From: Escherichia coli
Lineage (GTDB): Bacteria; Pseudomonadota; Gammaproteobacteria; Enterobacterales; Enterobacteriaceae
Strand: one strand, 5' to 3'
Length of the DNA stretch: 11,574 bases
Assembly: GCF_003334315.1 (NCBI RefSeq)
Contig: NZ_QOWR01000085.1
Below the pieces are notes generated by a model. That model saw only the letters and a list, made by a program, of their open reading frames with translations. It made no database searches and was not told the origin of the DNA. The translations under genes were made by a program, and so were the position numbers. Position 1 is the stretch's first letter; each line of letters opens with the position of its first letter. Positions 8,328-9,422 of the stretch are shown here, one piece after another.

Positions 8328-9422
8328 ATGAGCAGACCGGACTGGGGGGCGTTGCAGCAGGAGTATATTGCTGAATACACCCGCTCCGGTATATCTCCGG
8401 TGGCATGGTGTGAAGCAAGGGGACTGAATTACGCAACAGCCCGTCGTTACATCAAAAAAACTCCGAAAAATGCGCAGACAGAAATGTGCAAAACTGCGCA
8501 AAAAAGTGCGCAGAAAAAATCTGCGCAGACTGCACAAAAGCGGAACGAAAAATCTCAGGAAAAAAAGCCAGTATTCGATGCGGGCCTGAATGAGGGCGAC
8601 GCGGAGGAATTTTCGTTCTGTCCCGATGAATTCGGCATTTCTGACCAGCAGGCTAAGTTTGCGATGCTTGTTGCTCAGGGTAAAAAGCCGACAGAGGCGT
8701 ACCGACTAGCCGGTTATGAGGGGCAAGGTGCGACAGCTAACAGCAACGCCAGTCGTATGCTTAGAAATGCCAGGGTTTTTCGCGCTATCAGCTACTTCCG
8801 CAATCAGTACCAGAAACGCTATACCGCAGACCTGGATTTACTAGTGAGTCAGTTGATGGCTATTGTCCTGGCCGACCCCAATCAGCTTGCACAATTTCGC
8901 CGTGTTAACTGCCGTTATTGCTGGGGCGAGAATCATCTCTACCAGTGGCGCGATATAGCAGAATTCGACAAGGCAGCGGCGCAGGCTTCCAGAGATGGCA
9001 AACCCGAACCGGAATATGGAGGCCTCGGCTTTGTTGATAACGCCATACCCAATCCGGACTGCCCGAAGTGCTGCGGTGAGGGAACGGGACAGCTTTATAT
9101 GGCTGATACCACTCTGCTTGATGGGGATGCGCGGCAATTATATGCAGGGGCAAAATTCGGAAAATTCGGCGTTGAGATCCTGCTGGAGGATAAGGCTGCC
9201 GCCCGGCGTGAATTGTTGCGTTTGTTTTCTGCTGGCGGGGCTTTATGTGCAGATAAACGGCTACAGGAACTGGAAATTGAACGGCGCAGAATGGAAAACC
9301 AGAAGCTGCGCAAAGAGATCGAAACGGTGGAAGATAATGAACATCCCCAGCCTGTGGCGATCAATATTAATGTGGTTGATGCCAGAGTAAGGAGTGATGA
9401 AGATGATCTCTCCGACGCTTAA
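8328..9422 (+). CDS. Terminase small subunit (atypically long)
   Basis: Residues about 100-160 (ISDQQAKFAMLVAQGKKPTEAYRLAGYEGQGATANSNASRMLRNARVFRAI) match the small-terminase signature; sits directly upstream of and overlapping the large terminase gene; extra N-terminal HTH, KQ-rich linker, Cys cluster and C-terminal coiled coil. Confidence 0.7.
   Translation: MSRPDWGALQQEYIAEYTRSGISPVAWCEARGLNYATARRYIKKTPKNAQTEMCKTAQKSAQKKSAQTAQKRNEKSQEKKPVFDAGLNEGDAEEFSFCPDEFGISDQQAKFAMLVAQGKKPTEAYRLAGYEGQGATANSNASRMLRNARVFRAISYFRNQYQKRYTADLDLLVSQLMAIVLADPNQLAQFRRVNCRYCWGENHLYQWRDIAEFDKAAAQASRDGKPEPEYGGLGFVDNAIPNPDCPKCCGEGTGQLYMADTTLLDGDARQLYAGAKFGKFGVEILLEDKAAARRELLRLFSAGGALCADKRLQELEIERRRMENQKLRKEIETVEDNEHPQPVAININVVDARVRSDEDDLSDA
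8471..8536. repeat. Cluster of TGCGCA-type hexamer repeats inside the terminase small subunit gene (candidate pac/terminase recognition site)
   Basis: TGCGCA at 8471, 8495, 8507 and 8522, plus degenerate TGTGCA at 8486 and TGCACA at 8531, spaced 9-15 bp. Confidence 0.4.

Follow-up and report, generated by a model that had tools for sequence, protein, structure and literature searches.

A repeated hexamer inside the small terminase gene of an Escherichia coli prophage: a candidate pac site and its putative reader domain

The stretch of Escherichia coli DNA considered here (11,574 bp of contig NZ_QOWR01000085.1, called the window throughout) carries the terminase genes of a prophage, and the 5' part of its small terminase subunit gene, terS, holds a tight cluster of six hexamers of the type TGCGCA. 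It is probable that these hexamers act in cis as a set of binding sites for an extra HTH (helix-turn-helix) domain at the N-terminus of TerS itself, and that they make up the recognition part of the packaging (pac) site. The candidate pac role of the array is strongly suggested by sequence comparison, since the array is, as far as such comparison can tell, built on the same plan as the pac site of phage P1 and accompanied by a homologous reader domain. The gene, the linker-coding DNA that hosts the array and the six hexamers are as follows.

8328–9422, + strand: terS, gene for the small terminase subunit, 364 amino acids (aa), recognised from the list of open reading frames (ORFs), the translation, PHROG 51, Pfam and annotation
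8460–8612, + strand: DNA coding for a K/Q/A-rich linker, about aa 45–95, which hosts the array, from the translation
8471–8476: hexamer 1, TGCGCA, a palindrome, in reading frame 3, peptide N-A-Q
8485–8490: hexamer 2, TGTGCA, a one-base variant of TGCGCA, in frame 2, peptide M-C-K (relatives have M/V/L-R-K there)
8495–8500: hexamer 3, TGCGCA, in frame 3, peptide T-A-Q
8507–8512: hexamer 4, TGCGCA, in frame 3, peptide S-A-Q
8522–8527: hexamer 5, TGCGCA, in frame 3, peptide S-A-Q
8531–8536: hexamer 6, TGCACA, a one-base variant, in frame 3, peptide T-A-Q (several relatives have TGCGCA there)

The first-pass annotation of this DNA had described six copies of TG(C/T)(G/A)CA, four of them exact, at 9–15 bp spacing between 8471 and 8536, within the small terminase gene and over a low-complexity peptide, and had proposed a count of TGCGCA as a check of local enrichment. 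All of these points hold. A pattern count returned six TGYRCA within 66 bp (spacings of 14, 10, 12, 15 and 9 bp), four of them exact TGCGCA, at every position claimed. The gene product matches PHROG 51, ‘terminase small subunit’ (E 1.7e-75 over aa 1–364), its residues 122–321 match Pfam PF03592, Terminase_2 (E 3e-7), and the gene is annotated as terS in phage records that are 99.7% identical. The translation of the stretch, NAQTEMCKTAQKSAQKKSAQTAQK, is of low complexity. The whole window holds only nine TGCGCA and 20 TGYRCA, and the nearest other TGCGCA lies 770 bp off, which leaves the array as a single contiguous cluster; the motif density is 70 per kb in the array, 1.1 in the rest of terS and 0.28 upstream. 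Four TGCGCA or six TGYRCA within 66 bp arose in none of 3000 simulations under a first-order Markov model of the window, and a four-copy cluster of any hexamer arose in 3 of 300. The clustering is real and not a matter of chance. Alignment with close relatives, which carry six exact TGCGCA, shows the copies at 8485 and 8531 to be single-base variants of a six-copy array.

The hexamers are selected at the level of DNA and not of peptide. A repeated peptide had to be excluded as their cause because five of the six copies in the window share one frame (xxT GCG CAR, giving xAQ), and the copy number differs among close relatives, as slippage would predict. Under such an explanation, the hexamers would be a functionless by-product of a low-complexity peptide whose 9–15-nucleotide (nt) unit, (S/T)AQK, had been duplicated by slippage. 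For comparison, 61 distinct sequences were assembled from an IMG/VR scan and from GenBank phages, and each linker peptide was recoded 500 times with synonymous codons at the codon usage of the window. The mean number of motif copies was 5.5 as observed and 0.63 after recoding, and in 60 of the 61 sequences none of the 500 recodings reached the observed count. The 60 distinct relatives carry 4–8 hexamers at the same spot (median start 14 nt past the HTH codons, median span 66 bp), and the TGCGCA copies of the 61 sequences fall in all three reading frames (196 in frame 3, 44 in frame 2 and 7 in frame 1), so that the encoded peptides xAQ, [VML]R[KTN] and CA, in that order, are unrelated to one another. 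The frame-2 copy, for example, reads ATG-TGC-AAA in the window and ATG/GTG/TTG/CTG-CGC-AAA, encoding [MVL]RK, in relatives.

Homologues with 36–43% aa identity retain the array at the same spot. Their flanking bases vary freely in the alignment, and the peptide with them, while the hexamers stay exact. Likewise, the TerS gene of Klebsiella phage ST11-VIM1phi8.2, whose product is 39.5% identical to that of the window, has six exact TGCGCA that use all three frames (TAQ, LR, CA). The type of hexamer, moreover, tracks a residue that is encoded outside the repeat, as described below. A peptide-only origin was rejected on frame usage and synonymous recoding; it is largely refuted and must be regarded as extremely improbable. 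The earlier suggestion that the DNA repeat constrains the peptide rather than the reverse is thus borne out by the three frames and by the gap between 0.63 recoded and 5.5 observed copies. The linker itself is predicted to be disordered. The array starts about 12 nt 3' of the last HTH-domain codon in the window, within the linker-coding DNA, and aa 42–105 of TerS have pLDDT below 50 in a full-length model; this model, built from a single sequence, had an overall pLDDT of 45 and was too poor for other use.

Two natural disruptions of the array region were seen. The prophage Rac-SA53 (KU052037, 1351–2379 of the extracted locus L006) has a deletion that fuses gpO to terS, with loss of the HTH and the first hexamer. 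Of its five remaining hexamer positions, the first two are exact TGCGCA and the others, each with a substitution relative to the window, read TTCGCA, TGCGCT and TGCCCA. The stretch has four substitutions in all, three of them in hexamers, counts too small for statistics. The changes are suggestive of relaxed constraint after the loss of the reader. The second case is E. coli CUWW10 (NZ_CP182145, 1501–1660 of locus L218), in which an IS1A insertion or a deletion truncates terS at nt 144–145, exactly where the array starts.

Selection on nucleotides might also act through RNA, with UGCGCA hairpins in the terS mRNA tuning its translation or stability. The window array does fold better than shuffled sequences (z = -5.5), as does the Klebsiella array (z = -3.5), but repeated palindromes fold well automatically. 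The related TGCGAA arrays are equally conserved and yet show no such advantage over shuffled sequences (Pasteurella z = +1.2, Yersinia z = -0.6), so what is conserved is not an RNA structure. Furthermore, the nine TGCGAA of Pmp11 stand in direct orientation and cannot pair with each other, and no compensatory changes that alter hexamers while preserving a hairpin were seen among the relatives. An RNA element is therefore scarcely to be credited. TGCGCA is also the recognition site of FspI. A restriction or methylation site was rejected as an explanation, as TGCGAA is not palindromic and lacks the GCGC that TGCGCA contains, and a search of six ORFs (6421–11126) yielded no methyltransferase domain.

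The protein encoded by terS has three parts, namely the extra N-terminal HTH, the low-complexity linker and a canonical Terminase_2 body, the last followed by a Cys-rich C-terminal portion. The parts that bear on recognition are these.

8328–8459, + strand: codons of the PacA-like N-terminal HTH, aa 1–44, from the model, hhalign and Foldseek
8442–8444, + strand: codon CGT of Arg39, in the recognition helix YATARRY, linked to specificity by column comparison
8691–9290, + strand: Terminase_2 (SPP1 G1P-type) body with its own canonical HTH and an oligomerisation core, from Pfam and tblastn

The 44 residues of the N-terminal domain are MSRPDWGALQQEYIAEYTRSGISPVAWCEARGLNYATARRYIKK. A model of this domain built with an alignment gave a three-helix HTH (pLDDT 84.8; helices at aa 6–20, 24–31 and 35–41) in which residue 39 sits in helix 3. 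The Foldseek neighbours of the model were all HTH DNA-binding domains, none of them significant, and a weak sequence match was found to the N-terminal HTH of the IS21 transposase IstA. Matches by tblastn to the TerS proteins of F116, Bcep22 and PEp14 begin only at about aa 90–130.

The identity of the putative reader is indicated by covariation between this domain and the array. Two types of array occur across the TerS relatives, one of TGCGCA and one of TGCGAA with its complement TTCGCA, the latter often arranged as the dyad TGCGAATTCGCA; Klebsiella phage RothC and IMG/VR locus L062 are examples of the TGCGAA type. An A-R-RY helix goes with TGCGCA and an A-K-RY helix with TGCGAA/TTCGCA in all 64 sequences, the 61 distinct ones showing no exception, and among 39 distinct domains column 39 is the sole HTH column that separates the Arg/TGCGCA class from the Lys/TGCGAA class. 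The domains of loci L047 (Arg) and L062 (Lys), for example, differ at 2 of 43 residues, and their hexamers differ. On 100 bootstrapped neighbour-joining trees built with column 39 omitted, the Arg/Lys state changed 4–9 times; the trees are noisy, though the classes are clearly interleaved. Since the two hexamers differ solely in their fifth base pair (C:G or A:T), the pattern resembles direct readout of that pair by residue 39, be it Arg or Lys.

The same data bear on the possibility that something other than TerS reads the array, be it a host factor or the ParB-like protein encoded 1.2 kb upstream (6421–7212), the link with TerS being coincidental. A ParB-like gene and two genes of unknown function do lie just 5' of terS in the window, and TGCGCA arrays elsewhere serve other DNA-binding proteins such as O-like initiators. 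However, phages of Yersinia, Klebsiella, Providencia, Pasteurella and Aeromonas share the HTH and the array while their upstream genes differ and include no annotated ParB-like gene, and residue 39 of the TerS HTH alone predicts the hexamer type. A separate reader is hence very unlikely.

The likeness to P1 had been put forward as an analogy of repeated hexamers, and it has turned out to be more than that, with a homologous HTH encoded upstream and hexamers at the equivalent place in pacA. Experiments have defined the pac site of P1 as 161 bp that contain seven hexamers with Dam sites, and the pacA hexamers of P1 have been recoded synonymously (PMC10028697). The underlying work on pac and PacA is that of Sternberg and Coulby (1987–88) and Skorupski et al. 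(1992–94), as cited in PMC10028697. An alignment of TerS relatives matched P1 PacA aa 3–42 with an hhalign probability of 93% (E 3e-7, 40 columns), and the pairwise BLASTP identity between TerS and PacA is 30% over 43 aa. By this measure, the N-terminal HTH of TerS is homologous to the N-terminus of PacA.

In both systems, several 6-bp repeats of the form TGNNCA lie towards the 5' end of the gene that encodes the DNA-recognition subunit, directly after the HTH codons and in more than one reading frame. The TGATCA/G hexamers of P1 occupy pacA nt 194–233 and 324–380, just after the HTH codons and in two frames, where they flank an annotated site for integration host factor (IHF) and the cleavage positions at nt 276–285; the window array occupies terS nt 144–209, as against nt 194–380 for the P1 hexamers as a whole. 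The recognition helices read NTARRYLR in P1 and ATARRYIKK in the window. In both, Arg occupies the corresponding place in the helix and the fifth base of the hexamer is C, so that P1 fits the Arg/Lys covariation described above.

The differences concern control and context. The TGCGCA, TGTGCA and TGCACA of the window contain no GATC, unlike the TGATCA of P1 with its Dam control, and for that reason the window array would have no control by Dam methylation. The rest of the window TerS is of Terminase_2 type and not PacA, and the phage is a lambdoid, Rac-like prophage whereas P1 is a myovirus with a plasmid prophage. A related arrangement was noticed in phage D6 (MF356679, locus L216), whose PacA has an N-terminal HTH, NWEEHRARFIALREEKGITVKEYCEEHGLSFNTARKHL, intermediate between P1 PacA and the window TerS group. 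Four repeats of the ATGATC/GATCAT type lie at nt 310–455 of the D6 pacA gene, about 200–320 nt downstream of the HTH, and are a candidate for the D6 pac site.

The HTH and array accompany no fewer than three different TerS bodies, in proteins of 236–374 aa. It is about an even chance that the roughly 200 bp of HTH codons and array form a self-contained, portable packaging-specificity cassette, which would encode both reader and address label. Such a cassette would move by recombination among the unrelated TerS bodies of Escherichia, Klebsiella, Yersinia, Providencia, Pasteurella and Aeromonas phages, P1 PacA would hold the same kind of module, and its specificity could be re-programmed by one Arg/Lys change together with a one-base change in each hexamer. 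Because the sites lie in linker DNA that tolerates almost any peptide, the HTH and its sites could be inherited and exchanged as one unit.

This distribution also bears on an operator function, in which the TerS HTH would bind the array to autoregulate late-gene transcription or terS translation with no part in the choice of DNA for packaging. The covariation and the adjacency would suit whatever function the binding of the array by the HTH might serve, and a site in the 5' part of a gene could form a roadblock. Against this, the protein is a terminase subunit and the downstream morphogenetic genes all need read-through, the homologous PacA HTH and hexamers of P1 form an experimentally defined pac, and only TerS proteins, of several unrelated bodies, carry the cassette. 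A role in packaging specificity fits better, given the terminase-only distribution and the P1 precedent, and the operator is an unlikely explanation.

A few observations extend the theme beyond the relatives that share this domain. The PHROG 1206 small terminases of loci L172, L093 and L190 (hosts of 53–61% GC) have an HTH of a related pattern, …LSNRQIAKKHGVAESTLRKRI… (…STLRKRI…). L172 and L093 carry 5–6 TGCGCA in two frames directly after the HTH, and L190 carries four copies about 25 codons further downstream. The principle of a reader coupled to an array appears to reach beyond the enterobacterial TerS relatives. The Actinobacillus phage pPE4 (IMG/VR 2713896785_000028; loci L011 and L212 are the same sequence) has a TerS body of the window type (83% identity) and, at the N-terminus, an unrelated domain, MKESDWKIIRHRLETGDASARELGKEYGVSHTTINNRARKEGWKK. 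The linker-coding DNA at terS nt 130–200 holds the repeats GTGGAAAC/GTTTCCAC, with two copies each of GTTTCCAC and GTGGAAA(C). Reader and label would here form a second cassette, though as a single lineage it is an anecdote rather than a test, and a generalisation to a second type of N-terminal domain was dropped for that reason.

Taken together, physical binding, ring geometry, cut position and headful mode can be inferred as follows. The Terminase_2 bodies of TerS would assemble as a ring, from which the N-terminal HTHs would hang on their flexible K/Q/A-rich linkers. Several HTHs could then engage the array, one TGCGCA hexamer each, with Arg39 of the recognition helix reading the fifth base pair. 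The multivalent TerS complex would mark phage concatemers and recruit TerL for a first cut on or near the array, after which headful packaging would run towards terL. The gene in question is the following.

9394–10704, + strand: terL, large terminase subunit, from PHROG 2, 10250 and 38319 and from annotation

It overlaps the 3' end of terS, and the start annotated in ON470595 corresponds to about 9403.

Several points weigh against this interpretation. Recombination may have inflated the covariation count, as may the noise of trees made from 42 residues, and the true pac reader could be the second, canonical HTH of TerS, that of Terminase_2. The window has one cluster, whereas in P1 two groups, HEX4 and HEX3, flank the cut site and the IHF site; two clusters do occur in some relatives, Pmp11 among them. 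No IHF consensus was found between 7502 and 10907, even with one mismatch allowed, and the window TerL is unrelated to PacB, against which BLASTP gave no significant alignment (best E 0.81). A headful mode is suggested only by the relatives of TerL, which shares 43–51% identity with the TerL proteins of Jersey-like, K1ind-like and HK578-like siphoviruses, presumably headful packagers; a sequence search with TerL found no match to any solved or typed TerL. TGCGCA arrays are, in addition, not confined to terminase genes. In a scan of viral contigs for at least three TGCGCA copies 3–9 bp apart, about 80 of the 120 arrays follow the HTH described here and about 40 lie elsewhere, including O-like initiator genes and intergenic iteron-like arrays, so that the idea of arrays exclusive to terS was rejected. 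Lastly, literature searches on TGCGCA with pac, on hexamer repeats in terS, and on packaging, virion DNA ends, binding or genetics of the related phages (Yersinia vB_YenM, vB_EcoS, phiARM81mr) returned nothing relevant, and the array does not appear to have been described for these phages in the searchable literature.

Among the arrays outside terminase genes, those of the IMG/VR loci L092, L188 and L200 lie mid-gene in O-like replication initiators (PHROG 270, 391 and 678), where the coding DNA is again of low complexity. Presumably these are iterons of a replication origin that lies within the gene of its initiator, a placement known from lambda.

The arrangement shares single traits with other packaging and origin systems. 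The iterons of the lambda origin are sites for the O protein that lie within its own gene, in the segment encoding the linker between its domains. Both lambda ori and the window array thus place a protein's sites in its own linker-coding DNA, although the origin serves replication initiation and its DNA-binding domain is unrelated. The R-sites of lambda cosB are a repeated array read by the N-terminal winged HTH of gpNu1, and they adjoin the terminase genes. They are like the window array in being repeats for an N-terminal HTH of the small terminase, beside the terminase genes, and unlike it in their length of 16 bp, their position upstream of Nu1 and not inside a coding sequence, their need for IHF and their part in a cos mechanism.

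The G1P proteins of SPP1 and SF6 belong to the same Pfam family, Terminase_2, as the body of the window TerS. The pac of SPP1, with its pacL and pacR boxes, offers TerS several points of contact and overlaps in part with terS, and the binding of SPP1-type TerS is weak and largely independent of sequence in vitro (PMC9611059). Such proteins use only the canonical HTH, whereas the window TerS has the additional N-terminal HTH and a sharply defined hexamer. In P22, a headful phage, pac lies inside the small terminase gene 3 (PMC9611059), but it is a single asymmetric 22-bp sequence without repeats, in a different part of the gene, and the TerS is not homologous.

How TerS picks viral DNA is described in a review as unclear and controversial, and specific binding in vitro has been hard to show for P22, Sf6, SPP1 and SF6 (PMC9611059). 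The group of phages with the array offers a cleaner system, having a small separable HTH, a defined 6-bp site in 4–8 copies and a natural Arg39/Lys39 switch. If the cassette interpretation is true, it would provide a simple, readable code for the recognition of pac by TerS. A known pac site would also help to predict where lateral and generalized transduction start in the genomes of carriers, and would allow phagemids and transducing vectors like those built from P1 pac (PMC10028697). More generally, the case shows that overlapping codes tend towards DNA that encodes disordered linkers, as with the lambda origin in gene O.

The gene layout is that of an intact, lambdoid, Rac-like E. coli prophage, in which lysis genes, trkG, the ParB-like gene and two ORFs of unknown function lie upstream of terS. 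The ParB-like gene (6421–7212, + strand) matches PHROG 620 (E 8.5e-91), and the N-terminal part of its product resembles the ParB domain of phage methyltransferase fusions (PHROG 498). It is followed by a gene for a 317-aa protein (7184–8137, + strand) that matches PHROG 842, labelled ‘beta-glucosyl-HMC-alpha-glucosyltransferase’ (E 1e-103). Within the C-terminal half of TerS itself, at about aa 204–262 (window 9030–9110), two Cys pairs occur (CRYCWG … CPKCCGEG), a motif kept in locus L203 and suggestive of an inserted zinc ribbon in the Terminase_2 body. In the related phage record ON470595 (locus L001, 3260–3410; compare window 1244–1640), tRNA-Thr and tRNA-Gly genes lie downstream of the Q antiterminator gene; ARAGORN found no tRNA genes across the window. 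Directly 5' of terS, an 83-aa ORF (8073–8324, + strand) matches only the middle, positions 145–218 of 319, of PHROG 309 (E 8e-23), a small-terminase family different from that of the window TerS, and it could be a remnant or split part of another type of TerS or a small accessory packaging protein. E. coli strain 7/2 (NZ_CP023820) carries an identical module, with 100% identity over 8328–8640. The module is widespread: of 5426 complete E. coli genomes 883 have it, and it occurs in many prophages of Klebsiella, Yersinia and others.

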